Assembly (NCBI GenBank): GCA_019749895.1
Contig: JAIEPG010000002.1
Location: 66,244 to 130,243, forward strand
Source: Candidatus Babeliales bacterium
GTDB lineage: Bacteria > Babelota > Babeliae > Babelales > RVW-14
Reading direction: 5' to 3'
Length of the DNA stretch: 64,000 nt
Numbering within the stretch: the stretch's first letter is position 1; each line of letters starts with the position of its first letter. This document shows positions 3,668 through 64,000 of this stretch, piece after piece. The notes beneath the pieces were generated by a model. The model ran no database searches. It was given only the letters and a program-made list of their open reading frames with translations, and had not been told where the DNA came from. A program made the position numbers and the translations under genes.

Positions 3668-3698
3668 AAAAAAAGGACCTCTCAACAATGAGAGGCCC
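3668..3698 (-). terminator. rho-independent terminator of the 3725..4447 phosphatase gene
   Basis: GGACCTCTCA-ACAA-TGAGAGGCCC pairs at 9 of 10 positions. On the minus strand a T7 run (A-run 3668-3674 on the + strand) follows it. Confidence 0.6.
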
Positions 3699-3724
3699 TT
3701 TGCGTGACTAACTAAAACTAAAAA

Positions 3725-4447: not shown

Positions 4448-4520
4448 AGTAAAATTCCCACACATAACAACAGACCAAATCAACCTCACTACTAAGTTTA
4501 ACATACTTTTGATTTTTAAG

Positions 4521-4557
4521 AAAAAGGGGCTTTTTTTAAACAAAAAGCCCCTTTTTC
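4521..4557 (-). terminator. rho-independent terminator of the 4569..11036 gene
   Basis: AAAAAGGGGCTTTTT / AAAAAGCCCCTTTTT inverted repeat with flanking T-runs on the minus strand, 12 nt after the stop. Confidence 0.65.
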
Positions 4558-4568
4558 TTGAGATATTA

Positions 4569-7500
4569 CTAAATTAAGCCATGATAAGAACTATCTAACA
4601 CATTCTTCAGCTGCCCGCCTTTTAAAGTTTGATTTATAAATGGCTTTCTTGCATTTTCAAGCAACTGGGCCTGTGCCTGAGTATAAATCTTGTTTTGTAT
4701 ATTTTTAACTAAAAGATCATAGTTCTTTTGAGCAAGATAAGAATAATTATCCCCATTGTTTGCACTAGAAACCGATGTGTACTGAACAGCATAATTTTGT
4801 AAAAAAACATCATTTTTATAGCCAGCTTGCAACAAAATATGTACCAAGATAAGACTTAAACGGCGCAAACTACCACTAGTTTGTAGTCGAGCAAAAACTT
4901 CGTCCGGACTATCAAGTAAAACCGGCACCGAATCAAAAACCCTTTGAAGATTTTGCCGCTGTTCTGGCGTTGCTCCAGGAGCATTGTTGTCGGCAAAATG
5001 GCTAGAAAGGTCAGCCAATAAAGCTGGTTTCGTGGGATATAAATCACCAGGTGCAGACGCACCAGAATTATAATACGTCCATGGGCTTGGTGGTGGCGGC
5101 GTATCAAGATCTACTTTGTATGCTTTGATACTATTTTCTTGCTCTTCCGTTTCTATTGAGTGTGGACGCTTGAGCCTCACTTCATCAATCGCTTCTTGGG
5201 CCGTTATATTTTTTGATTTAACAAGCCAACAAGCAAGCATAGTCCCCGTCCGTCCATAGCCACCAGCACAATGAACAACAAGCGGCTGATTGGCTTCAAC
5301 ACTTGCCAGAGTTATAAATTGTTTAATTTGTGCAAGCGTTGGCGGCGCAAAGTCTTGAATTGGGATTCTTACGTTGCGCAGCGTACTCCAGCCTGGCACA
5401 CCCAAAGCACTGGTAAACCATTCCTGTGGCAATTGCGTCTCATTTGTCAACGAAACCAGATTCTTAACACCTTCAAATTGTAATGCTTTAATGTACGCAA
5501 AAGAATAAGGTAAAGCCATGCCACCTACCCGGTGAGGACTATCGTCAATCCAAGAAAAATTATTCCCTTCAAGAAGCTCTTTTAATCGCGCTTGCAAGTT
5601 CACTGCATCACAAAACTCTAATAGTTCAATCACATTTTTTAAAACAAGCTGATTGCCATAAATTTGTGCATTAAATTCGTCCCAAAGCTTATCTTTTGTT
5701 ACTTCATTAACACTTGTTGCCAAAGGGTAAAAAGCCTTGAAAACTTGTACCCCATTTTGACCAGACAAAACAAGCTCCATGTTTTCATCAAAGAACTTTT
5801 TCTTAGAGTTTTGAATCTCGGTATCAGTCCCGGCCAATTTCGCACCCGCAGGCCCAACAAATGAGGCTACTGATGAACCCGCAGCGTTAAGATTCATGAG
5901 CTGATCATAGACCACAACTGCTTGCGCTGCTTCTTTAACTTGTGCTGCTCCTGCTCGCCCCGGCTGCTGCGCTTGTTGCAGAAATGTTTGCAGATTAGTA
6001 TTTGCAACTGTGGAATAGGGAGAACCTCCCAAGCCACCAGAACTATTCACCGACTTAAGGCTCGCAAAGAAATCAGGACGCTTCTTAATTAAGTTAACAA
6101 AGTCTGTCCAAATATCTGCAGAAAATTTAGAATAATAAGTTTTTGTAACAATCGTATTAAATATCTGCTGTGCTATTGCATGTTTAAATGATCCAATACC
6201 TCGAAGATTATCCATTTGTCTGGCATGATGATCATTTTCACGCCGCGCTAACGTTTGATAAATATTTTCTTCAGATATTCCATAATATTCATCAGCTGGA
6301 ACGTCATGAGGATAGGCAGGACTTCTATTGCCTCTAAAGAAAAAGATATCGGCATTAGCAGCATAAGACGTCTTACTCAGCAATTTATCCATAATCGCTA
6401 GAGTACCCTTCCAATATTTATCGCCAGCGGTTCCTGCTGGAATATACTCAAGTACACGGTCAAGGTACATATGCGGGTAGCTTTTTTCAGATAATGATTT
6501 TTCAATTATTTTCTTTGCAAAGCTCTCTTTTAAAGCAAGTGTTTTTAACAAATTATCAACAATAAAAGTATACGTTGTGTTTTCTTTTGTTATCATGGAG
6601 TCACTGCCATCAGTAGCATATGAAAGTCCGTTGTGGCCAGTTGGACCATCATTGGCTTGACGCATAGCCTTTGCCAAAATATTTATTGTAGGGAGATATG
6701 GAGCAAGCTTGAATCGCGCAATATCTTCTTTGGTCACCGTCCACCAAAAAGTAACCGCCTTCTTTTCTGGCGTAACTTCAACTTGTTTAAGATCTAATGC
6801 CCATGCAACCGCTTGAGCATAGTCACCAATTTTATAGAAACGACCCCACTCGTTTTCGCCACTCGTTCTGCAACCAAAGCGAGCCGTGTCAGTTTTTTTG
6901 TTGTATTCAAGAAACAGAGTTGCGCTATGAGACCTCAACGGATAATTATACTTATAACCAAGAGTACCTTTACTAAACGAAAGCCCCATCAACGTTGCAT
7001 GATTACCATGCGTACCAAAACCTACTTTCTTAATGCTATCAATTTCTGCAAGCAAGTCTTTGAGCAACTGCGGCAACGCTGGAGCATCTTTACTTGCCAG
7101 CGCCACAACAGAAGTCTTACCCAAAAAGAAACTTGTTACATTAATCAAACTTTGATGAATAAAGGTAAAAATATCTTCAAACGTGTTGACAGCTTGAAGA
7201 GAACCTCCTGCTTTATTACCAATCACAACAAGCGCTACGTTAAAATTGTTAGAGTTATCAAGTTGAGCAGCATCGTAAAGCTTGGCTGCTCCAGATAAGC
7301 TTGTTGTTGCGGCTGCTAACTTAACAGTCACGCCAGTATCAAAAGCGGTACCGTAATGCCCACCAAGTTCTTGATACGGACTAATGCCGGTAAGCAGGCG
7401 TAAATATTCATCTAGCATTGTTTTAAAGGTGAAAAGTTTGTTGTCGCGCGTGTTAAGTTTAGGATTTGCAGCACTAGTAACCACTTCATACTCACTACTT

Positions 7501-10500
7501 GCTTTAACTGCCTTTATTGACTGATCGAACGTATCAATAAATAAATCTAACAGTGACAACACCGCCACTTTACCTATATCGCCAGCATTTTTGTATGATT
7601 GTACAAACGCAGGGTCAATAAGCTCAGTAACAATACCAGTAAGCAGCAACCATTGCTTATCAAACTTTTTACGCTGAGCAAATATTTCAGGCTTTAAAAA
7701 TTTAACACGCGCAATTTTCTCATTTACCGTATTCAACAGAGCTTTATCGTTATTGAATGCCGTTACAAGAGAGATCAGAACTTGCTGAACTGGTAGGGCT
7801 TGTGTTAAATCTTTTTCCTTTGCCGGTTCAAAAAAATCAGTGTGCAGCCAAACGGTAAGCAACCCAAGCTTACCCAAGGTTGCTACCGCTTCACCAAAAT
7901 CTTTTTTGTGCTGCTTGCCACCAACATCACCCACCTTGGCAACAAACTGAATCCACTTGTCACTCACTACTTGATTAAGTGCTTCGTCTGCTATTTTTGC
8001 ATACTGAATAACTTTACCTTCTTGTTTGATTTCAGGCTCAACAAGCCCTTTCTCTTTGAGTCTTTGAATAGCAATCGCTTCAGGTTTTAAAGTACGCAAA
8101 ACAAAATTGGCAAGTGAGAATGCATTAAGTACCTGATCCGCCTCTGGCTGCTGAAACAATAATGCTTCTAAGAAACGTACCGCAAATAATCGTTTAATAT
8201 AATCGTCTGTCCCTTTTACAAAATTACGTGTTTGCAAAATATGATGTCCAACCTTAGCCAAGGTATATTTAAACAAAGCTATTTTGTTAGTTAAATCTTG
8301 ATCTAGCGTTATTGATTTTACATAAAATTCCATACGCTGTTTAATAACCATCAAAAGAACCAAAAAGCTTATCCGTAGATTCTTTTCATCGGCACCTTGT
8401 GCCACAGTGTCAAGCATAGTCATAATTTGCGGAGCCAATGCTGCTTGGTTTTTAGTCGATTTAAATGGGGCAAGGAAAGCTTGAAGTTCCGCTGCGCTCA
8501 CTCCTTCTTTAAGTTCTAACTCTAATTCTTTAAGTAAATCATCAACCTTTGTAGCATCAAAATCTGCCGGTGCAATGCTAGAAAGCAACGGCGATATTGG
8601 ATAATTTTTCCAACCTTCAAGAATATCATTGGTATTTTTTAAATCTTGCAACGTTTGCTTTGAATCCCACTGAACCACCAGCCCCTGTTGTGGGTCGACT
8701 AAAAACTTTGCACCAGGCTCACTGATCGCATCGATAAGTTTATTAATACCGGTCATAAAAATAACCGGCTTTACTGCTGTACGAAATTGTGTTCCCTCAT
8801 GCGATGTTGGTGGCGCATGCTGCCCCACCACAACGCAAGCTACACGTTCTTTTGTCTTGCTATGCATGTACGTATCAAAAGCCTCACCCATAGTACTTTT
8901 AACAATTATTTGGTTGCCATCAATCAGTCGAACAGCACCATCGGCTGGAATAATTGTTTCTCCCTTAAAAACTTCTCCCGTTAACGCTGCAGGGTTGGCA
9001 ATGTATGACGGCTCTCCCTGATTTGGATTATGCGTAATTGGACGAGCTTGCACCAAGTACAATGTTGAATCATTTCTATCAATAACAAATTCAACGTCCA
9101 TTGGCTTGAGGTAATATTCTTCAAGAACATTTGCCAACAGCTTGAGCATAAGTCCTTCGTACGATGTCAGTACTGGGCTCATGGCAAGATCTGGCGGATT
9201 ATCGCGATCTTCAAGTTTAGAATCTTGGTTAAGAGAAGGAAATTTCCTAAATGGCTTTGGTCGCACAATTGCATACATTTTGTCAAAATCGCTCAGATAG
9301 TAGGTATCAACACCAACAAGACTGTTGACCACCCCTTCATTGTGCCCATACGCGGCATCAATAGCCACAATGCCAGTTGAACGAGCCTTGACAGAATAAT
9401 CCCAATGCTCATTCAAGAGATCTTTTTTTGCAATCCCCCCGCCCGGCTCTTCGGTAAACATAACACCACATGCTGGTAATCTTCTTTCTATCATTTTGTT
9501 GTCAGGCAAAACTGGCTCTATTTGCACAGCAACATAATTGTTTGGGTTTGCAACAGATGCAGCTGTTAGAACACGCACGGCGAGGACTATAGCTTCTGGT
9601 GTAGGCGCAACATTTTGAAAGTTTGTACCATTAGTAAGCGATACCTTAACCTGCCATCCTCCTTTTTGAGCTGCTTTTAACATACCATCAAGATCAGACT
9701 CTTGTGTGTTAAAAAATGCATCCAATGAATTTTTGCTTGTAGTTTTAAAGGTATCCCATTTTTCAAACAAGTTAGGACCAGGTTTATTGAACGCTGAACG
9801 CACATTTTTTGAACGAATACCACGAATACGCTCTCCCACCATTCTTTGAATAAGCACTGGCGTAAATGGCTCATCAAATAACTCAGGATCACCACCAATC
9901 AAACGTTGCATAAAGGATTTTTCACTAAAATATGAACCAACTACCACACCCATTGCCAGCAAAATTTCTGACAGCTGCGGCGCAACGTTTGCAACACTTT
10001 CATTACCCCCGGCGTTTGCAAGCTTGTCGGTATCTTCTTTCCCGGTACTACGAACCATTAATGAACTTTTGAAACGTTTTATTTTTTCAAGTGTTTCATT
10101 AATGCCAACTTCAAATTGAGCATCAAAATCAAAGATACCAGAAACAACGTCAGGCTCTGTTGCAGCTGTATTAAAAATGGCCATAACATCATTTTCTAAG
10201 ACCTTTAAATTATCCAAAAACGTTTTTGAAAAATTTTGATCGCGCTTAAATTGATCTTGCGCAGCCTTGTCAAAACGCGCTATAAAATCCGCCCAACGAG
10301 TTTTTATATCAAATCCATTTTTTAGCAAAAATGCTTTTATAGAATCTGACGAAATACCCTTAAACTCTGGCACACGTATTTTTAACTCATAAGAACCTGT
10401 TTTGTCGGCAATCAAGTTAGTCAAAATGCTTAATGCTCGAGATATCTTTTCAAGCTCTTGCAGATTTCCTGTTTTGTAACCATAGCCCTGAACTTCAGCA

Positions 10501-11036
10501 AAAACTCGCAATGCTTCTTTGTCGTGAGGGGCAATAGCAGCAATCAAGCTGGCAATCAATTGCGAAAGTTCTTTGTCGATATCTCTAAACGGTGCTGTAT
10601 CATACGCAATAAAAGCAGCAGCGTCTGGGTTCTTTTCTTCTTCTTCATCTGATTCCCAAAACATGCCCTTGAAAGCACCCCAGATCTTCCCTGTTAAAGA
10701 TTCTTCTTGCTGCTCTTGCGCTTTTAAATCCTTTACATATTGTCTCAGCGGCTTTTTGCTTTTAACAAATTCTTGGGCCTTGGTAAAACCGGTATTGTAC
10801 TGACCCCACAACGCCTGCTCTTTGGCTTTTCTTGCTGCTTCTTTTAAATTTTTCTCCAATTCCTGCTTTTCTCTCAAATCAGTTAACGCTTGTCCCAACT
10901 GACCAAGTTTTGCTTTTAAGGCGGTAAGTCCACCCTTCAAGTTGTCTAGTGGGTTTGTGGCAGCTGTAAATGCATGATTATTAATAAAAAATAGCAAGAG
11001 AAAACACAGCACGTACTGTCTCTGTTTTTTATTCAT
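4569..11036 (-). CDS. giant exported multidomain protein (2,155 aa): PPDK_N-like ATP-grasp, phospho-His swivel domain, about 1,050 aa unknown, DUSP23-like phosphatase
   Basis: Signal-like MNKKQRQYVLCFLLLFFINNHAFTA, then the shared helix NPLDNLKGGLTALKAKLGQLGQAL. ATP-grasp motifs (about 9033-10064): LMVRSTGKED, GVMFTEEP, AAYGHNEGVVNSLVGVDTYYL, PMDVEFVIDRNDSTLYLVQARPIT. Swivel domain (about 8742-8984): VACVVVGQHAPPTSHEGTQFRTAVKPVIF, with the T-S-H His codon at 8799-8801. Phosphatase domain (about 5112-5549): LVVHCAGGYGRTGTMLACWLV and LKRPHSIETEEQE, with the Cys codon at 5268-5270. Confidence 0.8.
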   Translation of the reverse strand: MNKKQRQYVLCFLLLFFINNHAFTAATNPLDNLKGGLTALKAKLGQLGQALTDLREKQELEKNLKEAARKAKEQALWGQYNTGFTKAQEFVKSKKPLRQYVKDLKAQEQQEESLTGKIWGAFKGMFWESDEEEEKNPDAAAFIAYDTAPFRDIDKELSQLIASLIAAIAPHDKEALRVFAEVQGYGYKTGNLQELEKISRALSILTNLIADKTGSYELKIRVPEFKGISSDSIKAFLLKNGFDIKTRWADFIARFDKAAQDQFKRDQNFSKTFLDNLKVLENDVMAIFNTAATEPDVVSGIFDFDAQFEVGINETLEKIKRFKSSLMVRSTGKEDTDKLANAGGNESVANVAPQLSEILLAMGVVVGSYFSEKSFMQRLIGGDPELFDEPFTPVLIQRMVGERIRGIRSKNVRSAFNKPGPNLFEKWDTFKTTSKNSLDAFFNTQESDLDGMLKAAQKGGWQVKVSLTNGTNFQNVAPTPEAIVLAVRVLTAASVANPNNYVAVQIEPVLPDNKMIERRLPACGVMFTEEPGGGIAKKDLLNEHWDYSVKARSTGIVAIDAAYGHNEGVVNSLVGVDTYYLSDFDKMYAIVRPKPFRKFPSLNQDSKLEDRDNPPDLAMSPVLTSYEGLMLKLLANVLEEYYLKPMDVEFVIDRNDSTLYLVQARPITHNPNQGEPSYIANPAALTGEVFKGETIIPADGAVRLIDGNQIIVKSTMGEAFDTYMHSKTKERVACVVVGQHAPPTSHEGTQFRTAVKPVIFMTGINKLIDAISEPGAKFLVDPQQGLVVQWDSKQTLQDLKNTNDILEGWKNYPISPLLSSIAPADFDATKVDDLLKELELELKEGVSAAELQAFLAPFKSTKNQAALAPQIMTMLDTVAQGADEKNLRISFLVLLMVIKQRMEFYVKSITLDQDLTNKIALFKYTLAKVGHHILQTRNFVKGTDDYIKRLFAVRFLEALLFQQPEADQVLNAFSLANFVLRTLKPEAIAIQRLKEKGLVEPEIKQEGKVIQYAKIADEALNQVVSDKWIQFVAKVGDVGGKQHKKDFGEAVATLGKLGLLTVWLHTDFFEPAKEKDLTQALPVQQVLISLVTAFNNDKALLNTVNEKIARVKFLKPEIFAQRKKFDKQWLLLTGIVTELIDPAFVQSYKNAGDIGKVAVLSLLDLFIDTFDQSIKAVKASSEYEVVTSAANPKLNTRDNKLFTFKTMLDEYLRLLTGISPYQELGGHYGTAFDTGVTVKLAAATTSLSGAAKLYDAAQLDNSNNFNVALVVIGNKAGGSLQAVNTFEDIFTFIHQSLINVTSFFLGKTSVVALASKDAPALPQLLKDLLAEIDSIKKVGFGTHGNHATLMGLSFSKGTLGYKYNYPLRSHSATLFLEYNKKTDTARFGCRTSGENEWGRFYKIGDYAQAVAWALDLKQVEVTPEKKAVTFWWTVTKEDIARFKLAPYLPTINILAKAMRQANDGPTGHNGLSYATDGSDSMITKENTTYTFIVDNLLKTLALKESFAKKIIEKSLSEKSYPHMYLDRVLEYIPAGTAGDKYWKGTLAIMDKLLSKTSYAANADIFFFRGNRSPAYPHDVPADEYYGISEENIYQTLARRENDHHARQMDNLRGIGSFKHAIAQQIFNTIVTKTYYSKFSADIWTDFVNLIKKRPDFFASLKSVNSSGGLGGSPYSTVANTNLQTFLQQAQQPGRAGAAQVKEAAQAVVVYDQLMNLNAAGSSVASFVGPAGAKLAGTDTEIQNSKKKFFDENMELVLSGQNGVQVFKAFYPLATSVNEVTKDKLWDEFNAQIYGNQLVLKNVIELLEFCDAVNLQARLKELLEGNNFSWIDDSPHRVGGMALPYSFAYIKALQFEGVKNLVSLTNETQLPQEWFTSALGVPGWSTLRNVRIPIQDFAPPTLAQIKQFITLASVEANQPLVVHCAGGYGRTGTMLACWLVKSKNITAQEAIDEVRLKRPHSIETEEQENSIKAYKVDLDTPPPPSPWTYYNSGASAPGDLYPTKPALLADLSSHFADNNAPGATPEQRQNLQRVFDSVPVLLDSPDEVFARLQTSGSLRRLSLILVHILLQAGYKNDVFLQNYAVQYTSVSSANNGDNYSYLAQKNYDLLVKNIQNKIYTQAQAQLLENARKPFINQTLKGGQLKNVLDSSYHGLI

Positions 11037-12958: not shown

Positions 12959-14665
12959 CTACAGTCCAGGCTCGTCGGATTCTTGCACGTAGGCAACTGC
13001 AAGCACTTCATCGATGGTAGTTATGCCTTCTTGAATTAACCGTACGCCATCCAGACCCAACAGCGTCATGCCGGCTTTAAGCGCCTGGTCACGCACCACA
13101 TTTGCATCGGCTCGTTGAATAATCAGGCGGGCAATGGCATCGTCAACCTCCATAACTTCAAACACCGCACAACGGCCACGGTAGCCCGTTTGTAGGCACT
13201 CGTCACAACCAACAGGCTTATAAAAAGTTATGCTGGCAGCTTGGGCAGCCGTTATGCCAAGACGGCGAATAGCTTCAGCATCGGGCTGGTAAACTTGGCG
13301 ACACTCAAGACACAAGGTACGTACCAAGCGTTGTGAGATAACCATAATTAATGAAGAAGCAATAAGAAACGGCTCAACGCCCATGTCGATCAACCGCGTA
13401 ATGGTTGCCGGTGCGCTGTTGGTGTGAATGGTGCTTAACACCAAATGACCGGTCAAGGCAGCTTGTGTTGCAATTTCTGCCGTTTCACGGTCGCGAATTT
13501 CACCAATCAGCACCACATCGGGGTCTTGTCGCAAAATAGATCGTAAAGAAACGGCAAACGTTAGCCCTGTTTTTTCATTAACCGGAACTTGATTCACACC
13601 ATGCACGGTATATTCCACCGGATCTTCAACGGTAATAATGTTAACGTCGGGCTGGTTTAAGCGATTTAAAATGGCATAGAGCGTAGACGTTTTACCAGAA
13701 CCGGTTGGACCGCTCACCAAAATAATGCCGTTAGGGCGTTCAATGGTACGCAGCATCAACTTTAAATCTCGCTCTGCCATACCAATTTTTTCTAAATCTT
13801 TAGTGCCCTTACCTTTGTCGAGCAAACGCATAACCACACGCTCACCAAAATTGCAAGGCAAAATGGACACACGAATATCAAATGCACGGTCGCCCACTTT
13901 AATTTGAATACGCCCATCTTGCGGTATCCGCTTTTCGGCAATGTTGAGATGCGCCATAATTTTTATACGCGAAACAATAGCGCCCTGGTAGCGCTTGGGC
14001 GGAATAACGCGGGAATATAAATTACCATCAATGCGGTAACGCACACGCAACTCTTTTTCATACGGTTCAATGTGAATATCTGACGCACCTTCTTTTACCG
14101 CCTGAAACATAACGTGGTTGACCAGTTTTACAATGGGCGCTTCGTTGGCCATTTCCATAATATCTTTGTCTTCAATGGAACTAAAACCGAACTCATCTTC
14201 GCCTTCGGTAAGCTCTTCCATCATTTCTTTACTACTTTCTAGCGGGTAGTATTTGTTGATGGCGTCCATAATAACTAAATCGGTAGAAACGGCATAACGC
14301 ACATCACCGGCCATGAGTAGTGAAAGATCGTCCAACGGCTGCAAGTCGTGCGGGTTGGCGGTTACCAACGTTTTTTGGCCTTCAAACATGATAGGAATTA
14401 CCATGTGCTGACGCAAAAATTTGAGTGGCACTTTGCGCAACAGCTCAAGGTCGGCCATTTGTTCGGTAATCAGCTGGATGAAGGGAAGCTGCATCTGCTC
14501 GCCCAGCGCACGAGCAACGTCATGCTTTGAAGCAAAGCCACGCTCAATAAGAATAGTACCCAGCAATTTGCCGGTCGATTTTTGTTCTTTTAAACAATCA
14601 TCAAGCTGCTCTTTGGTAACAATTCCAAGATCGATAAGAATATCACCAATTTTTTTTCTCAGCAT
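12959..14665 (-). CDS. GspE/PilB-family type II secretion / type IV pilus assembly ATPase
   Basis: N-terminal T2SSE_N-like domain (GDILIDLGIVTKEQLDDCL..LGEQMQLPFIQL). Walker A GPTGSGKTST. Asp/His boxes. Tetracysteine CLECR..CDEC. I prefer the start at 14665 (MLRKKIGD), with AAGGAG 9 nt upstream, over 14683. Confidence 0.9.
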   Translation of the reverse strand: MLRKKIGDILIDLGIVTKEQLDDCLKEQKSTGKLLGTILIERGFASKHDVARALGEQMQLPFIQLITEQMADLELLRKVPLKFLRQHMVIPIMFEGQKTLVTANPHDLQPLDDLSLLMAGDVRYAVSTDLVIMDAINKYYPLESSKEMMEELTEGEDEFGFSSIEDKDIMEMANEAPIVKLVNHVMFQAVKEGASDIHIEPYEKELRVRYRIDGNLYSRVIPPKRYQGAIVSRIKIMAHLNIAEKRIPQDGRIQIKVGDRAFDIRVSILPCNFGERVVMRLLDKGKGTKDLEKIGMAERDLKLMLRTIERPNGIILVSGPTGSGKTSTLYAILNRLNQPDVNIITVEDPVEYTVHGVNQVPVNEKTGLTFAVSLRSILRQDPDVVLIGEIRDRETAEIATQAALTGHLVLSTIHTNSAPATITRLIDMGVEPFLIASSLIMVISQRLVRTLCLECRQVYQPDAEAIRRLGITAAQAASITFYKPVGCDECLQTGYRGRCAVFEVMEVDDAIARLIIQRADANVVRDQALKAGMTLLGLDGVRLIQEGITTIDEVLAVAYVQESDEPGL

Positions 14666-14733
14666 ACTGCCCAGCTCCTTCATTTAGCATCAGATTTTTA
14701 TACGTGGTCCAGAGTGTATCAGATGGGTGGTAG

Positions 14734-29389: not shown

Positions 29390-30007
29390 GTGGTGAACAA
29401 GCGGGCGGGATTTTCCCTACTCGAATTACTAATCACGCTGGGCATTTTGGTAGTGGTTATTGGTTTTTCGCTACCCCGCTTTTCATTTTTTACCAACATA
29501 ATTTTGAATCACGAACTTGACCGACTGTTTATGGTTTGCTCATACCTGCAACAAAAAGCTATTGCTACTCACCAACCACAAACATTATCTTTTGATATTC
29601 AAAACAATCAGTACAGCTACCTGCACCACAACAAACCGCACACATTTAATTTGTCTGGTTCACTCAAATTTGGCTCACTGCCCAAAACCAAGGGCCCACC
29701 AGCATGGCCAAAAAATATTGTAAAAACGCCGGTAACGTTTCAGCCTGCACAAAAGGCAGTCTTCTTTCCTGACGGCAAAGTAAGCCCAGGAACCGTTTAT
29801 ATTGTTGATAAAGGCCAAAAAATAATGGGCGCTTTAACCTGTGCAATCTCTGAGGTATGCTACATAAGAAAGTATCGTTACAACAACAATCAATGGCAGC
29901 TGGTGCCAACAGGCAAAAAAACTTACCATGATAAAGTGGCTACGCCGCGCAGCGCTCAGTTTGATAACCGGCCTGGTTATCACGTTGCTGATGGTGCAAA
30001 ACAGTAA
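29390..30007 (+). CDS. type IV pilin-like pseudopilin (GspH/FimT-like)
   Basis: Prepilin leader and N-methylation motif KRAG|FSLLELLITLGILVVVIGFSL. GTG start with AAGGAG upstream. The last 80 nt overlap the next ORF. Confidence 0.75.
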   Translation: MVNKRAGFSLLELLITLGILVVVIGFSLPRFSFFTNIILNHELDRLFMVCSYLQQKAIATHQPQTLSFDIQNNQYSYLHHNKPHTFNLSGSLKFGSLPKTKGPPAWPKNIVKTPVTFQPAQKAVFFPDGKVSPGTVYIVDKGQKIMGALTCAISEVCYIRKYRYNNNQWQLVPTGKKTYHDKVATPRSAQFDNRPGYHVADGAKQ

Positions 30008-32696
30008 AAATATTAACCAACTCTTTCTTGCAAAGCTTACCGAGTTTTTGCAAAAAGAATGGCATGCAACTATTGTTATCAATTCCAGCTCGTTTAATTT
30101 TTTTACCAGCTCAATTGTTTTAAACCAAGGTTCTATAACTTCAACCAAACATACCGACTGTCGCTGGGGTTTTGAAAAAGGGAAAATTTATATCAGTCCA
30201 TTCGAGCTTTTGTTGCACAAAAAAATCTGCTTGTACTTAACGTTTTATAATGTTTCAGGCAGCACTGGCTTTACCGGCAACTCTCCAGACATACTTGATC
30301 ATCTCAATAATATTTTTGAAACAAAATCTGACGATCTTAAAGTGAGCCCACGCGCTATCACGCTCCATCACCTCGTTATTGACACTGCTCTGGGAGGCAT
30401 ACCGCTCCACGCAGAAATTGAGGGTACGTTTGAACTAAAAAAAAGCAAACTTGCCAACAAAGAAAGCAAATGGGACGGACAACTGACTACACAAGCAGGT
30501 AGCGTTACGGTCAACAACAAACAGCTAATAAAAAGCATCAAAGGGACATCAACGTTTGGCAAGCACAAGCGCGATGCGCTCTGGACAATTAATGCCCAAC
30601 ACCACATTGAAACACATTTAGACGAACATACGCACGACGTACACGGCACCTGCTCATGCGACAAACAAGAGATAACAGTTGTCAGCGAGCAACAAAAACT
30701 TGCTGTCAAACTAAACCACACAGCAGAAAAATTTTTAATTACGGGTAACCTGCCACTTGCATTGACCCAGCGCTGCGCCACTTTTTTTGCCAATGATACG
30801 TTACCAGCACCAACTGAAACAGTACAAGGCCTATGCACACTGGACCTGACAGTTGACTACACACACCACGCAACCGGTAGCATTACGGCAAAAAATATTC
30901 AGTACAAAGATTTTATTGTTGAGCAATGCGCATGCACTAACATAGAGCTCAACGAAAAAAATCTATCAACCAATGTACACATTCACGTATCGCCAACTAT
31001 TGGACTTGATGGCACTATTGCGTGGGACCTACAACGCAAGATAGGCTCACTGGCCTGCTCAAACAAGCAACAACTACAAATTTCTTCATCACCTGGCCAA
31101 CTAGAAGCTGGCTGGGTTATAAGCCCTGGCAGCTGCACACTTGAAGCAACCATTACCATGCCCTTTTCGTGCACCGGCACCTACATCTGCACACTGCATC
31201 ACGAGCTAGTTGACCAATTATTATCACTATGCGGTACCTGGCAGATGGACAACCAAGAACTGAATATTGAAGGCACAGCCAACAATGATTCATATGTAAT
31301 TCAAGCCCGCAGTACACCAAAGCCACACATTTCAAACATTGTTTACAAAAAAAATAATACCACCCCAGTTGTCAGCATGCATACTCAGCCCGAAAGTATG
31401 GTTTTGGCTGGCAGTATTTACTATCCATTTATTCAATCACTGCTCAGTCAACAATGCAAACGGCTTATTTTAGGAAGCAAAAACTTTTTACAGGTGAGCG
31501 TTAACCAAAAAAATTTAGAAGAAATTACCGGCTCGGTCAGCCTTGAAACAGGGAAATTTTATATTCCAGAAAGCAGAAATCTTATTGAAAAACTTGCCAG
31601 CAACTTTGCCATTTACCCACACAGCAAAAAGATTGTGCTCAGCGACAATGTGCTGGGATTTTGCAAAGGAAGCATAAGCTGTCCGCAAGCAACATTAACA
31701 TTTAATGATAACTACCACCTCAACTTTGTGCACGCACCAATTCAGATCGATAATTTATTTGTGAACTGGAAAAAAGATTTTTATGGATTCATTGACAGCA
31801 GCTTGCTGTTACTTAAATTTCCCGGCTCACCTGCCCATGCTTCAGGCAACATTGTTTTAAAAAAATCGTTACTGAAAAATAATATCTTTTCAGAAGAAAC
31901 CAATACGCGCTTTTTTTTACCGGCCAATCCGCTTGCTCAGCACAATCAAACAATTGATGTAGACCTGCGTATTGGCAACGAAATACCGGTAAAAATTGTA
32001 ACACCATCGCTAGAAACTACCGCTCATTTAGATTTGCATGTGCAGTACCAACAGCAAAACGTAGCTCACTTGCCACACGTTAACGGCTCAATTACGCTAG
32101 ACAATGGCTTTATAAAATTTTTACGCAACAAGCTATTTATTGAATACGGCAAGATACAATTTGTTACCGCACATGCTAACGACCCATTAATCGATTTAGT
32201 TGCAAAAAATAGAATTAATAAGTACATGATTAACCTGCAAGTGACAGGCTCTTTGCAAAAACCAAATATTGTTTTAGAATCGGCTCCTGTGCTGACCGAA
32301 GAGCAAATTTTGGGACTACTGCTGGCCGGCTCAGAAAATGCAACACTGCAAGCCGACCTGCCAAGTATGATTATGCAAAACCTGCACAACATTGTTTTGG
32401 GCAGCAAAGCAGTAATGCCAAAAGCTACTTCGTTTTTTGAAAAAGTTGCACGACCGTTTAAGTACGTACAAATTTCACCAAACTTTACCGACCAAACAGG
32501 CCGAGGCGGCATTCGTGGTACTATCTCAATTGATTTAAACAAACAAATACACGCGCAGCTACAAAAGAATTTTAACTTGCAAGATGATTTTGCTTTCCAA
32601 GTTGAGTACTTTCTTTCCGACGACGTTAACCTAAAAGTGGTTAAAGATCAGCGCGGTGACCTTGGGTCTGAAGTTGAAGTAAGATTTAAATTTTGA
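29928..32696 (+). CDS. TamB/AsmA-like translocation and assembly module protein
   Basis: N-terminal membrane anchor MIKWLRRAALSLITGLVITLLMV. A long beta-rich body follows. The C-terminal DUF490-like block is NGSITLDNGFIKFLRNKLFIEYGKIQF..DPLIDLVAKNRINKYMINLQVTGSLQKPNIVLESAPVLTEEQILGLLLAGS. Confidence 0.75.
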   Translation: MIKWLRRAALSLITGLVITLLMVQNSKNINQLFLAKLTEFLQKEWHATIVINSSSFNFFTSSIVLNQGSITSTKHTDCRWGFEKGKIYISPFELLLHKKICLYLTFYNVSGSTGFTGNSPDILDHLNNIFETKSDDLKVSPRAITLHHLVIDTALGGIPLHAEIEGTFELKKSKLANKESKWDGQLTTQAGSVTVNNKQLIKSIKGTSTFGKHKRDALWTINAQHHIETHLDEHTHDVHGTCSCDKQEITVVSEQQKLAVKLNHTAEKFLITGNLPLALTQRCATFFANDTLPAPTETVQGLCTLDLTVDYTHHATGSITAKNIQYKDFIVEQCACTNIELNEKNLSTNVHIHVSPTIGLDGTIAWDLQRKIGSLACSNKQQLQISSSPGQLEAGWVISPGSCTLEATITMPFSCTGTYICTLHHELVDQLLSLCGTWQMDNQELNIEGTANNDSYVIQARSTPKPHISNIVYKKNNTTPVVSMHTQPESMVLAGSIYYPFIQSLLSQQCKRLILGSKNFLQVSVNQKNLEEITGSVSLETGKFYIPESRNLIEKLASNFAIYPHSKKIVLSDNVLGFCKGSISCPQATLTFNDNYHLNFVHAPIQIDNLFVNWKKDFYGFIDSSLLLLKFPGSPAHASGNIVLKKSLLKNNIFSEETNTRFFLPANPLAQHNQTIDVDLRIGNEIPVKIVTPSLETTAHLDLHVQYQQQNVAHLPHVNGSITLDNGFIKFLRNKLFIEYGKIQFVTAHANDPLIDLVAKNRINKYMINLQVTGSLQKPNIVLESAPVLTEEQILGLLLAGSENATLQADLPSMIMQNLHNIVLGSKAVMPKATSFFEKVARPFKYVQISPNFTDQTGRGGIRGTISIDLNKQIHAQLQKNFNLQDDFAFQVEYFLSDDVNLKVVKDQRGDLGSEVEVRFKF

Positions 32697-56198: not shown

Positions 56199-56390
56199 AC
56201 TTCAACCTTAAATTTTTAAAATTTTTAAAAATGCCTCTAGCTCAATAAAAAACCATACAATGCTGGACTGCCCTGGTCAAGCAAATGTCAACTCCTGCCA
56301 CTTATAACACAGTAGTTGACACCACTGAACTATGCATGGTACGAGTAAAAGAAAATATTAAGAATGGCCCCTGGATTTTGGATTAAATTT

Positions 56391-57449
56391 ATGAAAAAAA
56401 TTTTTTTTCTAGCTATCGCACAATGCTTATCACTCAGTGCCTTACTTTATTTTCTGAAAAAACCTATCCATCCAGTTAGCGGAACGGTAGCACATTATGT
56501 TGACGAACAAAGAATATTTGACGCCAAGCCCCGCTCTTTGGAAGTTGTTTTTTGGTACCCTACCAACAAATCGGTAAAAACAACGCCTCAGGAATATGGC
56601 ATCTGGAAACTCGGTGATGTAGCGGTAGATACACCGATAATCCCTGACAAACTACCACTCATTCTTTTTTCACACGGCTTTGGCGGCGACCCGTACGGAA
56701 ACTCCTGGTTTGCGCACTATTTGGCCTCGCATGGTTACATAGTTGCTTGTGTAAAACATTATGGCAACGCTTTTGGCAATATGATTCCTGAACTTGGCGC
56801 CCGCCCCTGGAACAGGCCGTTGGATATGAGCTTCATTCTTGATAAAATTTTAAGTGATCCACGCTTTAAAGATCATATCGATGCCAACCGGATAGGCGCG
56901 GCAGGTTTTTCGCAAGGCGGCATGACCACACTTTGGCTTGCTGGAGTTAAGGCTAATTTAGATCAGGAGCTCTTGTACAAATACATGGCAAGCATAAAGG
57001 ATAATGAATGGAGATCGGTCTTTGAAAACTTCACACAAAGTGATATTTCAGATGCCAATAAATCGTATCATGATGATCGGATAAAAGCTGTTTTTGCAAT
57101 GGCACCTGGGCTTGATTTTAATAATTGGATGTTTACAAAAGAAAGTTTATTAACTGTCTACACACCAATATACCTTGTTGTGGGCGATGCAGACATGGTA
57201 GTCTCAGCTGATGAACATGCAAAATTTTTTGCACAAAATATACCATCAAGCACACTCACTATACTTTCTCCAAACGTAAGTCACTGGGTCTTTATGAACG
57301 AAAGCACTCAAGAAGGCAAAAAAATTAACCCAAAAATTACTATTGATGCCCCAGGGGCAGACAGAACAAAAATTCATAAAAGCGTGGGCAGGACTGCTTT
57401 AAAGTTTTTTGATACAAATCTAAAAACATCAAGTAAAACACCCAAATAA
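56391..57449 (+). CDS. exported alpha/beta hydrolase (dienelactone hydrolase / PAF-acetylhydrolase-like)
   Basis: ATG at 56391 (MKKIFFLAIAQCLSLSALL). Motif PLILFSHGFGGDPYGNSWFAHYLASHGYIVACVKH. Nucleophile elbow GAAGFSQGG. Confidence 0.7.
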   Translation: MKKIFFLAIAQCLSLSALLYFLKKPIHPVSGTVAHYVDEQRIFDAKPRSLEVVFWYPTNKSVKTTPQEYGIWKLGDVAVDTPIIPDKLPLILFSHGFGGDPYGNSWFAHYLASHGYIVACVKHYGNAFGNMIPELGARPWNRPLDMSFILDKILSDPRFKDHIDANRIGAAGFSQGGMTTLWLAGVKANLDQELLYKYMASIKDNEWRSVFENFTQSDISDANKSYHDDRIKAVFAMAPGLDFNNWMFTKESLLTVYTPIYLVVGDADMVVSADEHAKFFAQNIPSSTLTILSPNVSHWVFMNESTQEGKKINPKITIDAPGADRTKIHKSVGRTALKFFDTNLKTSSKTPK

Positions 57450-59497: not shown

Positions 59498-60364
59498 ATG
59501 CAGAACACCAAGCTTGAGCAAGAATGTATTGATCTGTTTAATGCACAGGGTATGTCTACCCAAACCATTCGTGCATTCCAAGAAGTTATTTATAATTACT
59601 ACCACCAAGCCGGCAGAACCTTTGCATGGCGACAGGAAGTAACACCGTACCGTGTTGTTGTTTCTGAAATTATGTTGCAACAAACACAAACCTATCGGGT
59701 TGCTCCAAAATTTGATGCGTTTGTTGAACGCTTTCCAACGTTTAACGAACTCGCACATGCACCGTTTGAAGAGGTACTGCGCTTATGGAAGGGCCTGGGC
59801 TACAACCGCCGCGCTCTTAATTTACAAAAAATTGCACACAACTTGGTTACCAACTTTGACGGACAACTGCCCAATTGCCCGCAAACGCTGGCAACCCTGC
59901 CCGGCATTGGCAAGGCAACAGCTGCCTCAATCTGCGCTTTCGCACACAACACGCCAACTACTTTTATTGAAACAAATATCCGTACCGTGTTTATCTACTT
60001 TTTTTATCGAACAAAAATAGATATTTCAGACAAAGAACTCATGCCATTAATTGAAAAAACAGTCGATACTAGCAATCCGCGACATTGGTACTATGCACTG
60101 ATGGACTATGGCGTTATGCTCAAAAAAAATGTTGGTAACTTGTGCAAGCTGAGCAAGCATTATGCAAAGCAATCTAAGTTCCAGGGCTCAGACCGGCAAA
60201 TTCGCGGTATGATTTTACAGGTTTTACTCGAACACCCACTTTTATCAGAACACAAGCTTATTCAAAAAATAGACCGCCCACAAGGTCGCATACAGTTAAT
60301 TCTTGATCAACTTTGCCAAGAAGGCTTTATTCAAAAGAGTTCTCTTGGTTTAAAGCTCTCCTAA
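59498..60364 (+). CDS. HhH-GPD DNA glycosylase, MutY-like, apparently without the 4Cys Fe-S cluster loop
   Basis: FAWRQEVTPYRVVVSEIMLQQTQ, LWKGLGYNRRALNL and LPGIGKATAASICAFA (HhH-GPD). After ALMDYG only one Cys is present (NLCKL), where C-X6-C-X2-C-X5-C is expected. The C-terminal part is FQGSDRQIRGMIL. Confidence 0.65.
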   Translation: MQNTKLEQECIDLFNAQGMSTQTIRAFQEVIYNYYHQAGRTFAWRQEVTPYRVVVSEIMLQQTQTYRVAPKFDAFVERFPTFNELAHAPFEEVLRLWKGLGYNRRALNLQKIAHNLVTNFDGQLPNCPQTLATLPGIGKATAASICAFAHNTPTTFIETNIRTVFIYFFYRTKIDISDKELMPLIEKTVDTSNPRHWYYALMDYGVMLKKNVGNLCKLSKHYAKQSKFQGSDRQIRGMILQVLLEHPLLSEHKLIQKIDRPQGRIQLILDQLCQEGFIQKSSLGLKLS

Positions 60365-60506
60365 TGTTCCCACCAAATCTTAAAGAACCTTCATCTTTCT
60401 AACATTTTTCTCAAAATCTTGAGTTCTTCTTTTCTCTTGAACTAGGATAGTAAAAGCTATTTTTAGTATTTAAAGGTTTCACCCCTCAAAAAAAGAGAGA
60501 ATTGCG

Positions 60507-63500
60507 ATGAAACAAAAAAGAACATACTCGGTCCTAGGCCTTGTTTTATTGTTGAGCTTGATGCTCAATATTAACCAAGCAGCATTTGCAGGACCCGGCG
60601 ACCCCTCAACATCCGACAGTACCGATAATAAAGATAAGAAAACAGAGCAACAAACCAACGAAAAAAAATCAGACAGCTCAGATAATAAAAAAGAAACTAA
60701 CGATCAGAAGAAAAAAGACAAAGAAGCCGAAAAACAGAAAAAGAAAGAGGCTGACGATCAGAAGAAAAAAGACAAAGAAGCTGAAAAACAAAAAAAGAAA
60801 GATGCTGATAATCAAAAGAAAAGCGACACTGATAAGAAAAGTAAAGACAGCGACAAGAAAAAAGAGAGTACCAAACAAAGCAAAAAAACATCTCAAGTGG
60901 GCATGACCAAAGAACAACAGAAACAACAAAAACAAATTGAAAAAGAGAAACAAAAAAAAGCAAAAGAAGCAGCAAAACAAGCAAAGAAAAATAAGGGCAA
61001 AGCGAAAGAAAAAGAAGAAGATCAACAAATTGTAGCCGCAACAGGCCCCCAACAAAAAATCTCTAAAGATTTATTCACTGCGTTGCCAGGAACAGATTTA
61101 CAAAACATCGATATCGCTCGCGGCGGCAACGACCCATTAATTTTTGGGCTCTCAAAAGACGGAAAATTATCCAAACTCAATAAAGATTGGAACGGCTGGT
61201 CTGACATTTCTCCAACAACAGTTCTTCAAAGTTTTTCGGTTGGCGCTGATGGCACTATTTGGAGTTTAGACAAAGATGGTAACTGCTGGTACCAAGAAGA
61301 CGGACAAACAGAATGGGGACAAATTAGTACCAAAGACAAAAAATTTGCACAACTTTATGTTGGTAATAAAAATGAAGTTTGGGCCCGCGATACCGATAAC
61401 AATATTTGGAGAAAAAAGAACCCAGTTACCGAACAAACTGAGTGGCAAAAAGTTGATGGCCAAGGGGTTTTTATAGCATGTAGTGGGGACGGAACTGTTT
61501 TACTTGCAGCTAATGACCTAGTTCTTCGTACTTTTAATCGCTTTAAAAAATCATGGGAAAATATTATAAAACCAGCAACATTTGATATGGGCAACCCATT
61601 AAAAATATCAACAAAAGATAAATTTAATACTCTGTTTCTTGATTATAAAAACAACGCATGGAAACTTGCACCAGGAAGAAGCGGCAAACAAAAAACTGAT
61701 TGGCTAGCAATTGAAAGCGCTACCGGCTCTTTTAAAGATATTGCAATTGGTTACGACGGCACTATTGTAGCAATAGACAAACAAAATAATATCGTTGTTA
61801 ACAAACCATCAAAAGACGATACTGCTGCTCTAGAAAAAGCACGTGGACCAGAAATTCGTGGCACGCAAATTGTCAGACTTATTGCAGGACCAAATGTTGA
61901 CGGCATGCGAGCCTGGACCCACGCCGATAGCTATTACGACCAAAACGCTCAAGTAGACCCACCAAACAACTTTAATGAATTGTTAGTTGGTAGCTCTGGA
62001 TCGGGCTCTGTAACTTTGAATATTGAAAAACCAACTGATGAAACAACCTCTCAATCAGACGAGGGAAAAACGCAACCAGACAAAACAACAACAGAAACAG
62101 AAATAGAAAAGGCAACAAAAAAAGCAATTGCACCTTCTTCTGACGCAGGAAAAAAATTAAAAACTGATCAAGCAAAAGCAGATGACAATAAGCAAATAAT
62201 TAAAACGCAAGATAAGCGCCAAGATATTGGTTGCTTTTTTACTATCACAGCTGCACAAGATGACAACTCGACTAACGTTATTAATTTTGGCGACACGGTA
62301 AGTATTTGGTCACTCTACGCAGCAGAAGGTAATCTTAAAAAGGCTGGCTCACTAAGCAAAGAATGGAAATGGTGGGTAAGCGACAGTCATTTCATGTGGA
62401 AGCCTGATCAGTTTGATATTCGGGTGTCATTACTCAATCATCCACACGCTCAAGATGGCTGGCAAACATTTAAACTGATAAGTCCATACAATCAAACAGG
62501 CCCAATTCGTTCAAACGACACAATTATTATTCAAAGTATGGCTCCACATGCCCAAGAGCGTAACCTTTGGGTAAATCAATATAGCTGGGTTAATGCCAAA
62601 GAACATTTTGAAATAATAGTTCCTGCTATCAATACAGGATCTTGGCAGCCAAGTTTTTATGGACAACAAGACCTTGGCGGCGCACAATACTTTACACTCC
62701 AAGCAGTAAATTCAGAAGCAGATGTTCCTGATACGGGAACCTCACTCAACACTAAAGACCCAAAGAAAACTGCACGTGATGTTTTTAATATGATCAAAGG
62801 ATCAGCATTTTGGTTTGATAAAAAACTGGCAACAGCAACCGTTGCAAAATCGTTAGTAAAATCTGAATTGACATCAGGCCTTGGCGTTGTTAGAGAATTA
62901 CGCAACAATACGGACTATGAAATAACAACCAACAACTATGGAACCTGCCCCCCTCACGACACAATTCAAAACAAAAAATATGAATTACTTGAACCATTAA
63001 TTCTTGAGGGATTTGCAAAAGAGCCTTCAATCGCTGACTTTGGCCCAGACCGCATGATTACACTCAACAAAATGTTTAGCAAAGGCTTTGCTTGGATTGA
63101 CACCGCGCTTGAAAAACCTGGTAAAGCAACCATAACGTTCCTTGCACGCGCTGGTGACACTGGCGGCATCGAAGTTGTATTTAATACAAAAGCTGATACA
63201 CAAGCCAAATGGCACGTTATTATTGGCGGCAACAATAACACAACATCACAAATATTACTCGATGGCAAACTCATGGCAGAAGCGCCACTTGCCCGTGCAG
63301 TTCCAGGTAACTTCATTCCTTACTGGATTTCTATTAACAACGGCTGCATACTCGTTGGTATTGGCACACCAGGTACGAGTATCTTCATGTCTGCCTATAT
63401 GCCTGAAGCTATACCTGTTGATCGCATTGGTTTTAGCTCTCACAATGGAGCGGTTGATTACACGGAAACTAAAATTGGACAGGCACTTCAAGTTATTGCA

Positions 63501-64000
63501 GAAGACGTTTACGCAAAAGCTAAAGACATTACGTTGCCAGCTAATGGCACTCAAATTAATGTAATAGACATTCCAGTTCGCCTTCCTAACGAAGCAAGTA
63601 TTGCCTTTGCCGCTCAAGCAAAACATGATTTGGCAATTGTTTTACAAAATAAAAAAGGCGACAACAAATATCGTGTTGTTATTGGCGCTCAAGATAATAA
63701 GGTAATAAAAATTGAACGAAATGGTAAGGTTGTGCATGAGTTGATGACTGAACTACTCCCTACAGTACACGTCTCTCCAGACAAACCTACCGACTTCTGG
63801 ATAAGTATTCTTGGCGGCGCAATTATGGTTGGTCAAGGAAAAATTGGCGACAATTTATTAATGGCATGGCAAGATCCAGACGAACTTGAAGATATCACAC
63901 AACTTGGCTTTCAACCGTCTGATCACGAACAAAAAATTACCAACATAGAAATTGCACCGCCCGTTACGATAGGCATTGAAAAAACAGCTATAAAATACGA
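60507..64000 (+). CDS. large exported mosaic protein, 3'-partial (>1,164 aa): Lys-rich repeats, tectonin-like beta-propeller repeats, 2x Methyltransf_FA-like domains
   Basis: Not in the supplied ORF track because it has no stop inside the window. I translated it by hand from the ATG at 60507 and saw no in-frame stop to 64000. Signal-like MKQKRTYSVLGLVLLLSLMLNINQAAFA. K/E/D/Q-rich region at 60590-61020. Repeats of type GADGTIWSLDKDGNCWY, NEVWARDTDNNIWRK and GYDGTIVAIDKQNNIVV (about 61060-61815). Two domains with ..HDLAIVL..YRVVIGAQDNKVIKIERNG..DFWISILGGAIMVGQGKIGD..LMAWQDPD (about 63125-63470 and 63591-63960). Confidence 0.8.
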   Translation, partial: MKQKRTYSVLGLVLLLSLMLNINQAAFAGPGDPSTSDSTDNKDKKTEQQTNEKKSDSSDNKKETNDQKKKDKEAEKQKKKEADDQKKKDKEAEKQKKKDADNQKKSDTDKKSKDSDKKKESTKQSKKTSQVGMTKEQQKQQKQIEKEKQKKAKEAAKQAKKNKGKAKEKEEDQQIVAATGPQQKISKDLFTALPGTDLQNIDIARGGNDPLIFGLSKDGKLSKLNKDWNGWSDISPTTVLQSFSVGADGTIWSLDKDGNCWYQEDGQTEWGQISTKDKKFAQLYVGNKNEVWARDTDNNIWRKKNPVTEQTEWQKVDGQGVFIACSGDGTVLLAANDLVLRTFNRFKKSWENIIKPATFDMGNPLKISTKDKFNTLFLDYKNNAWKLAPGRSGKQKTDWLAIESATGSFKDIAIGYDGTIVAIDKQNNIVVNKPSKDDTAALEKARGPEIRGTQIVRLIAGPNVDGMRAWTHADSYYDQNAQVDPPNNFNELLVGSSGSGSVTLNIEKPTDETTSQSDEGKTQPDKTTTETEIEKATKKAIAPSSDAGKKLKTDQAKADDNKQIIKTQDKRQDIGCFFTITAAQDDNSTNVINFGDTVSIWSLYAAEGNLKKAGSLSKEWKWWVSDSHFMWKPDQFDIRVSLLNHPHAQDGWQTFKLISPYNQTGPIRSNDTIIIQSMAPHAQERNLWVNQYSWVNAKEHFEIIVPAINTGSWQPSFYGQQDLGGAQYFTLQAVNSEADVPDTGTSLNTKDPKKTARDVFNMIKGSAFWFDKKLATATVAKSLVKSELTSGLGVVRELRNNTDYEITTNNYGTCPPHDTIQNKKYELLEPLILEGFAKEPSIADFGPDRMITLNKMFSKGFAWIDTALEKPGKATITFLARAGDTGGIEVVFNTKADTQAKWHVIIGGNNNTTSQILLDGKLMAEAPLARAVPGNFIPYWISINNGCILVGIGTPGTSIFMSAYMPEAIPVDRIGFSSHNGAVDYTETKIGQALQVIAEDVYAKAKDITLPANGTQINVIDIPVRLPNEASIAFAAQAKHDLAIVLQNKKGDNKYRVVIGAQDNKVIKIERNGKVVHELMTELLPTVHVSPDKPTDFWISILGGAIMVGQGKIGDNLLMAWQDPDELEDITQLGFQPSDHEQKITNIEIAPPVTIGIEKTAIKY
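60701..60830 (+). repeat. 54-nt (18-aa) tandem coding repeat, about 2.3 copies
   Basis: CGATCAGAAGAAAAAAGACAAAGAAGC(C/T)GAAAAACA(G/A)AAAAAGAAAGA.GCTGA starts at 60701 and at 60755. A degenerate third copy follows. It encodes DQKKKDKEAEKQKKK(E/D)AD. Confidence 0.8.

Follow-up and report, generated by a model that had tools for sequence, protein, structure and literature searches.

The 3′ end of a 64,000-nt stretch of DNA from a Candidatus Babeliales bacterium (Dependentiae/TM6, a lineage that lives in obligate association with protists; contig JAIEPG010000002.1, forward-strand positions 66,244 to 130,243; hereafter the window) carries the 5′ part of a gene for a giant exported protein (60507-64000), which is the subject of this analysis. 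All features of this gene lie on the plus strand and are given in window coordinates. Computational translation of 60507-64000 gave 1,164 codons and zero in-frame stops up to the window end, confirming the 3,494-nt open frame that a first-pass annotation of the letters had read by hand from the ATG at 60507. The frame opens at 60474, 60507 is its first ATG, and the chance of a random open frame of 1,164 codons is about 1e-34, by arithmetic from the base composition (~39% GC). The open reading frame (ORF) was absent from the mechanical ORF list because it runs past the window edge and such ORFs go unlisted, as that annotation had supposed. Upstream, we read a Shine-Dalgarno-like, purine-rich stretch, AAAAAGAGAGAA (60490..60501), 5-17 nt 5′ of the ATG; a scan of 60300-60560 for a sigma-70-like promoter and a terminator found neither. 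The start codon opens a Sec-type signal peptide in the translation (aa 1-28; 60507..60590), the leader noticed in the first pass, with the basic n-region MKQKR, the hydrophobic core LGLVLLLSLML, and an A-F-A|G cleavage-like site, and without a lipobox Cys. This N-terminus is conserved in orthologs, the counterpart at the related locus L001 being MKQKRNYSIFGLVLLLSLMLNSNQVTFA. The GC content of the gene is 0.38-0.40, against 0.41 in the flanks. That the gene is real is borne out by the ratio of nonsynonymous to synonymous substitution rates (dN/dS), which in the folded domains is 0.05-0.16 against its positional ortholog.

Around it lie housekeeping genes of bacterial type, encoding transketolase, tRNA-Asp, an amino-acid ABC transporter, UvrB, and an HhH-GPD glycosylase. 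The window UvrB shares 97.6% identity with that of the Candidatus Babeliales metagenome-assembled genome (MAG) JAIERW010000004.1 and 92% with that of the closed 1.45-Mb genome CP064957.1. Both of these (L001, L002) present the gene order uvrB, HhH_GPD glycosylase, two tandem giant paralogs, and gyrB on the opposite strand. The tandem pair was found again in the more distant L005, a few genes away from gyrB-dCMP deaminase-dksA, and in its relative L004, which is syntenic with L005. Judging from this gene order, the window gene stands first in a tandem pair of paralogs; a search of the window for a further paralog found none elsewhere in it. The positional ortholog (L001:4442-9829) has 1,795 aa, and its aa 1-1196 align with window aa 1-1164, at 77% identity over all 1,164 aa and 82% over the folded part. 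Identity to the orthologs P0001-3 is 63-72%, and ortholog lengths are 1,650-1,800 aa. Because the positional ortholog has 1,795 aa, the window end appears to cut the gene about 630 codons early, and the last 14 codons inside the window (63957..64000) would, by homology, continue over that length.

Two observations concern L004. Both genes of the pair are split there (L004:42-8175, as 42-2927 plus 2791-3711 and 3715-6495 plus 6499-8175), which could reflect pseudogenisation or a fault in the assembly. The 'Pseudomonadota' label of L004, considered as a sign of spread beyond the Dependentiae, was rejected; it looks wrong because the contig shares synteny and 60-75% identity with the Dependentiae-type L005. 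A scan of GTDB genomes found 2 loci; it relied on two exact peptide patterns and gives no measure of distribution.

Behind the signal peptide lies a Lys-rich polyampholyte region of low complexity (aa 29-185; 60591..61061; 50 K/R and 34 D/E among 157 aa), which is probably a disordered spacer. Tandem Repeats Finder located in it a 54-nt tandem repeat (60700..60822; 2.3 copies, 91% matches) with units DQKKKDKEAEKQKKK(E/D)A, in line with the ~145-aa K/E/D/Q region and 54-nt repeat described in the first pass. Compared with its counterpart in the closest ortholog, the region lacks 38 aa (landmark QQKISKDLF at aa 182 versus 220); in P0002 other low-complexity sequence takes its place, and P0004-7 do not have it. 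The NCBIfam matches MAP_0585 and Asr on this region were rejected as compositional and far under the cut-offs.

The spacer leads into a tectonin-type β-propeller (aa 186-445; 61062..61841), recognised by Pfam PF19193 and by blades read from the sequence. The first pass had counted five or six DGT-W repeats at about 61060-61815 and had likened them to tectonins. Six repeat units are readable at aa ~198-440, three with the canonical G-x-DGT-(I/V) and three degenerate, and together they would form a closed six-bladed propeller. Scanned alone, aa 186-441 matched PF19193 (Tectonin) at 42.0 bits (cut-off 30; E = 9.4e-11). Tectonin was not reported when the full 1,164-aa protein was scanned against Pfam, a miss that we attribute to a filtering or composition artefact of the Lys-rich region because the isolated propeller passes. 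The orthologs P0003-P0006 score 43-65 bits. The propeller matched Laccaria Tectonin 2 (5fsb) at E = 1.8e-5 in a single-sequence phmmer search and at E = 2.8e-22 with the family profile, which also matched the fish-egg lectin 4ruq (E = 7.6e-4), so that the suggested likeness is borne out by PF19193 and 5fsb. With Laccaria bicolor Tectonin 2 (5fsb/5fsc) and the fish-egg lectin family, the window protein shares ~40-aa repeats and the blade signature G-x-DG-T-(V/I)-W ... (I/C)-(Y/W)-R. Unlike Tectonin 2, which is a free 227-aa lectin, its propeller is one module of a bacterial exported protein of ~1,800 aa, and three of its six blades have degenerate motifs.

A Trp-rich domain follows in two segments, aa 446-505 (61842..62021), the probable first part of a β-trefoil, and aa 572-744 (62220..62738), the main part of a probable MIR-like β-trefoil with an invariant WKWW. 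Between them lies a Thr/Lys/Asp/Glu-rich disordered insertion (aa 506-571; 62022..62219) with a predicted local distance difference test score (pLDDT) of <50. This loop of ~66 aa is peculiar to the window's sub-lineage and shows just 57% identity to the ortholog, with indels. In the P0004-P0007 clade the linker is missing and the aa 446-505 segment directly adjoins the second; the linker is therefore taken as an insertion and its flanks as one ~240-aa unit. The acidic/Thr-rich linker and the ~250-aa Trp-rich region of the first pass are thus both present, but not as separate elements, the linker being a loop within one probable trefoil. In a Foldseek search with the low-confidence AlphaFold2 (AF2) model of this unit, every top match was a β-trefoil (E = 4e-5 to 1e-2, TM-score (TMt) 0.6-0.68), including Caenorhabditis elegans 1t9f, Pmt4 MIR, SDF2-like proteins, the N-terminal domain of the ryanodine and inositol trisphosphate receptors (RyR/IP3R), and the botulinum neurotoxin receptor-binding domain (BoNT HCR), with alignments that cross both halves. 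The model therefore points to a MIR-like β-trefoil with an inserted disordered loop as the probable fold, MIR-type trefoils being the top structural matches. Unlike MIR and ricin-B proteins, the domain carries no sequence-level MIR or ricin-B signal: Pfam gave no family at E ≤ 10, and the PDB sequences gave no meaningful match.

The MID region (aa 745-868; 62739..63110) begins disordered and continues into a small β-rich orphan module, with strands at aa ~794-856 in the AF2 model (pLDDT 40-75); Pfam and PDB searches gave no usable match to it. Downstream lie two Methyltransf_FA (PF12248) modules, FA1 (aa 869-992; 63111..63482; 42.8 bits, E = 5.7e-11) and FA2 (aa 1025-1150; 63579..63956; 60.4 bits, E = 2.1e-16), joined by a 32-aa linker (aa 993-1024; 63483..63578; 62.5% identity to the ortholog). 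Both scores exceed the PF12248 gathering cut-off of 24.2 bits, and the whole window protein reached 93.7 bits (E = 1.1e-26) over 2 stretches. Two module copies of ~115 aa had been recognised in the first pass and likened to Methyltransf_FA; the copies are present at ~120 aa each and the likeness holds. FA1 and FA2 are homologous to each other, the hidden Markov model (HMM) of each finding the other (E = 2e-17 and 1e-11). Both are divergent copies; the most canonical one, FA3, with an IGGWEN-type motif, lies near the ortholog C-terminus, beyond the window.

The PF12248 domain is shared with arthropod farnesoic acid O-methyltransferase (FAMeT) proteins, CPAMD8, and invertebrate thioester-containing proteins, with two copies in the window and three in full-length orthologs; it also occurs in shell-matrix proteins. 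The arrangement resembles the crustacean '2x pfam12248' type, whose linker of ~40 aa (PMC10015273) compares with ~32 aa between FA1 and FA2. Unlike these proteins, the window protein is bacterial and exported, and its FA domains sit within a much larger chassis. Pfam found no DM9/DUF3421 match in the window protein or the full-length orthologs, and because this domain is absent, the protein is no FAMeT ortholog.

Structure prediction gave the FA modules a confident galectin-like, concanavalin A (ConA)-like β-sandwich, in answer to the AlphaFold and Foldseek check proposed in the first pass. In the AF2 model of aa 745-1164, pLDDT was 80-93 in FA1 and 88-95 in FA2, with the pair given as 85-95. 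The nearest PDB structures to the FA1-FA2 pair in Foldseek were tandem-repeat galectins (galectin-8, galectin-9, and that of Toxascaris leonina; E ~4e-10), and the comparison with a single galectin domain gave a TMt of 0.61 and a root-mean-square deviation (rmsd) of 4.8 Å. The next matches were laminin-G/LNS pairs and other ConA-like jelly rolls; among viral models, the pair matched phage tail and receptor-binding jelly rolls and the adenovirus galectin fibre. A fold of S-adenosylmethionine (SAM)-dependent methyltransferases was not among the Foldseek matches of the pair. Tandem galectins, LNS pairs, and FA1-FA2 alike comprise two ConA-like β-sandwiches joined by a linker. The FA pair has only 10-14% sequence identity to these structures and a different domain orientation (rmsd ~15 Å over both domains), so that the likeness is at the level of the fold only. 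The galectin family (PF00337) gave no match to FA1 or FA2 at E ≤ 10, and Laminin_G_3 was sub-threshold (E = 0.048). Judging from the modelled galectin-like/ConA-like sandwich, the FA modules would be binding modules rather than methyltransferases.

An exhaustive HMMER search with a profile of aa 745-1164 retrieved 501 representatives at E ≤ 1e-3, 116 of them at E ≤ 1e-30, and we mapped the architecture of the best 150 of the 501 matches with family-specific HMMs. A conserved chassis emerged, MID-FA1-FA2-CTa-CTb-FA3, of which the window shows MID-FA1-FA2. MID always precedes FA1, and a local HMM places it beside FA1 in most chassis proteins. Among the best 150, CTa and CTb occur together in 104 proteins, and a hydrophobicity heuristic rates the N-terminus of 86 of these as signal-like. 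The heads at the N-terminus differ between members: ~20 have the complete head of tectonin plus Trp-rich domain, and others have partial tectonin repeats, a relocated Trp-rich domain, or an unrecognised head. Beyond the window, the orthologs continue with CTa, a Gly/Ala-rich hydrophobic segment, CTb, the third FA domain, and a Pro/Gln-rich tail. The segment, an uncharged Gly/Ala/Ser-rich stretch of 20-64 aa, separates CTa from CTb in almost every chassis protein and shows glycine-zipper-like spacing, for example AGVAAGVGISAATAGAGV in P0001. Searches of the ortholog C-terminal region against Pfam and the PDB gave nothing usable.

The first-pass annotation had not seen this domain combination in bacteria; it is in fact the hallmark of a sizeable family, so far without a name, from Dependentiae MAGs and genomes. 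Every named member is annotated as 'hypothetical protein' and comes from Candidatus Dependentiae or Babeliales, and a literature search found no paper pairing tectonin with Dependentiae. The architecture and chassis are undescribed in the literature searched, and public databases already contain the orthologs under that annotation. Tandem arrays of FA domains alone were found in marine invertebrates (Lingula, Anneissia), one more Dependentiae MAG, and a MAG that carries the label Gammaproteobacteria. In two further proteins, P0137 (3,805 aa; MCB9492698.1, from a MAG labelled Epsilonproteobacteria/Campylobacterota) and P0129 (1,790 aa), both the order and the number of the tectonin repeats and FA domains are quite different. 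It follows that tectonin and FA domains were either brought together more than once or extensively shuffled.

Selection on the gene follows its domain boundaries. Against the positional ortholog, dN/dS was 0.16 in the propeller, 0.05 in aa 446-505, and 0.06 in aa 572-744, and it lay at 0.27-0.52 in the linkers (inserted loop, 0.52; FA1-FA2 linker, 0.27), a pattern that is as expected for a functional modular protein with disordered spacers. We considered 'exceptionally fast evolution' and rejected it: the 82% identity of the folded part is within the range of the neighbouring genes (78-98%), and dN/dS is low. The synonymous divergence (dS) from L001:4442-9829 was 0.32-0.47 over 60507-61841, about half of that over 61842-63956 (0.9-1.7). 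The tandem paralogs of L001 are 73.6% alike, versus 69.5% and 68.8% to their positional orthologs in L002. The dS split and the likeness of the L001 paralogs together suggest that the tandem copies have exchanged sequence by recombination or gene conversion.

Members of the Dependentiae rely on a host and export numerous proteins without a known function (PMC6561590, PMC4776705). In our judgement, the gene rather likely encodes a Sec-exported, multivalent lectin-like protein of ~1,800 aa that binds glycans or surfaces of the host or of its vacuolar membrane, with a chassis that anchors and heads that tune specificity. After export via Sec, the propeller, the trefoil-like domain, and the FA sandwiches would act as multivalent glycan or surface binders. 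By recognising the surface of the host cell or the membrane of the host vacuole, they might bring about attachment, uptake, or tethering. Membrane anchoring would come from the chassis and its conserved Gly/Ala-rich hydrophobic segment beyond the window, and the variable heads would adapt the protein to different hosts. The 'probably carbohydrate- or surface-binding secreted protein' of the first pass fits the Sec-type leader and the three lectin-type folds, and as to binding it stays a probability. The proposal would place the protein beside the ankyrin and F-box proteins of the amoeba-associated Legionella, Amoebophilus, and Babela, host-dependent bacteria that export eukaryote-typical domains (PMC4776705, PMC6561590). 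Unlike the window protein, the described cases are mostly intracellular protein-interaction repeats, and an architecture of tectonin, trefoil, and FA domains is unmentioned in the Dependentiae papers searched.

Several points weigh against this proposal. ConA-like and propeller folds serve protein-protein binding too. The AF2 model of the Trp-rich unit, on which the trefoil assignment depends, is weak (mean pLDDT 53.6). The sugar site 6 of Tectonin 2 is formed by Ser200, Asn216, Tyr222, and Trp3 (PMC6359319); in a loose HMM-alignment comparison with the Tectonin 2 sugar-site residues, which is no true test, an aromatic residue (W for Y) and a polar one (D for N) look kept in some blades. Orthologs are the only source for the anchoring segment and for a third of the protein, which fall beyond the window. 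The segment is moderately hydrophobic, its best 19-mer reaching a Kyte-Doolittle value of at least 1.5 in 64 of the 104 chassis proteins, and it could be a flexible linker.

The same segment is central to another reading, which we consider unlikely, namely that the protein is a lectin-guided, membrane-inserting effector or toxin. As in toxins that combine lectin domains with a membrane-active part, the heads would bind a host membrane glycoconjugate, and the Gly/Ala segment together with the helical CTb would insert into the vacuolar or plasma membrane as a pore, an anchor, or a fusion-like contact. The uncharged, glycine-zipper-like stretch between CTa and CTb would suit such a role, the receptor-binding domain of botulinum toxin found among the Foldseek matches also pairs a jelly roll with a β-trefoil, and the conserved tandem pair could be a two-component system. 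Set against this, the hydrophobicity of the segment is modest, its region lies outside the window, and we found no sequence or profile likeness to a known pore-forming or translocation domain. A C-terminal profile search (A4) likewise gave 0 significant matches among 8,000 candidates; it failed to recover the family itself, probably because Gly/Ala words saturated the prefilter, and is uninformative.

Alternatively, the paired giants could be structural components of the envelope or surface layer that coat or organise the degenerate Dependentiae envelope and bind its own surface polysaccharide. The tandem pair stands at a conserved uvrB/gyrB housekeeping locus in 4/4 lineages examined, and purifying selection acts throughout, both of which would suit such a part. 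Wohlschlager and colleagues are said to have reported in 2014 that tectonins bind methylated glycans of the bacterial lipopolysaccharide (LPS) type, which would also fit. Babeliales envelopes are reduced, another point in its favour; the same study reports that most LPS synthesis is lost, which removes the obvious self-ligand (PMC4776705). Furthermore, variable heads on a constant chassis look more like an adaptation to external, changing targets, and Pfam detected neither S-layer-homology nor cell-wall-binding motifs in the window protein or the orthologs. We regard the envelope role as improbable.

Eukaryotic contamination, an assembly chimera, or a very recent inter-kingdom transfer came into question for two reasons: both Pfam families are best known from eukaryotes, and the nearest FA arrays outside the Dependentiae include brachiopod and crinoid proteins. 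The GC content matches the flanks, and the gene is uninterrupted and preceded by a Shine-Dalgarno-like site. The locus and its synteny recur in independent assemblies, including the 1.45-Mb closed chromosome, the family is deeply diversified in the phylum (33-77% identity), and FA arrays occur in other bacterial MAGs as well. These observations make such an origin very improbable. The term 'eukaryote-like' used in the first pass is fair for the domain families; a recent transfer is not indicated, given the native composition and a family that is old in the phylum and has diversified there. Hardly credible is a farnesoic-acid-type O-methyltransferase activity of the FA modules on a host isoprenoid or glycan, which has the Pfam name and the strong PF12248 matches in its favour, and against it the predicted galectin-like/ConA-like sandwich in place of a Rossmann-type SAM-binding fold, the presence of PF12248 in non-enzymatic extracellular proteins, and the lack of proof of such activity even for the founding FAMeT proteins (PMC10015273).

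The window contains further genes of interest. It encodes a GspE/PilB-type ATPase of type II secretion or type IV pili (12959-14683, minus strand; PF00437, E = 5e-138) and a TamB-like protein (29928-32696, plus strand), which show a diderm envelope and represent a possible outer-membrane route for Sec-exported proteins. In a 2,155-aa ORF (4569-11036, minus strand), a PPDK_N-type ATP-binding (dikinase) domain (aa 514-673, E = 4.6e-24) is joined to a dual-specificity phosphatase domain at the C-terminus (PTP-SAK, aa 1825-1969, E = 1e-23). This fusion recalls eukaryotic enzymes of glucan phosphorylation and dephosphorylation and, by that analogy, could be a host-directed effector. Four kb 5′ of the giant gene, an α/β-hydrolase with a signal peptide (56364-57449, plus strand) shows weak PAF-acetylhydrolase and PETase-like matches and may be a secreted lipase or esterase. 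A 790-aa ORF (1183-3555, minus strand) had no Pfam match at E ≤ 1e-3.

A more far-reaching version of the lectin proposal, which we put forward as a long shot, is that the chassis is an unrecognised, host-membrane-active entry or anchoring machine of the Dependentiae. Lectin heads would select the host glycan, the fusion-peptide-like or glycine-zipper-like segment and the helical region would insert, and the tandem paralogs would form a heteromer. If true, bacteria would have a new class of lectin-guided invasins or fusogen-like proteins, and Methyltransf_FA would gain its first functional context. The three-copy Methyltransf_FA arrangement in a bacterium, with its confident galectin-like prediction, supports the view of this domain as a binding module and bears on CPAMD8, thioester-containing proteins, and FAMeT. 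In addition, a bacterial tectonin would lend itself to probing methylated glycans on the surfaces of protists. The Dependentiae, widespread and almost uncultured, live as parasites or symbionts of protists, and the locus is a concrete candidate for host recognition and entry. A conserved, tandemly duplicated, exported giant with a constant chassis and swappable heads presents the pattern expected of a host-range determinant.

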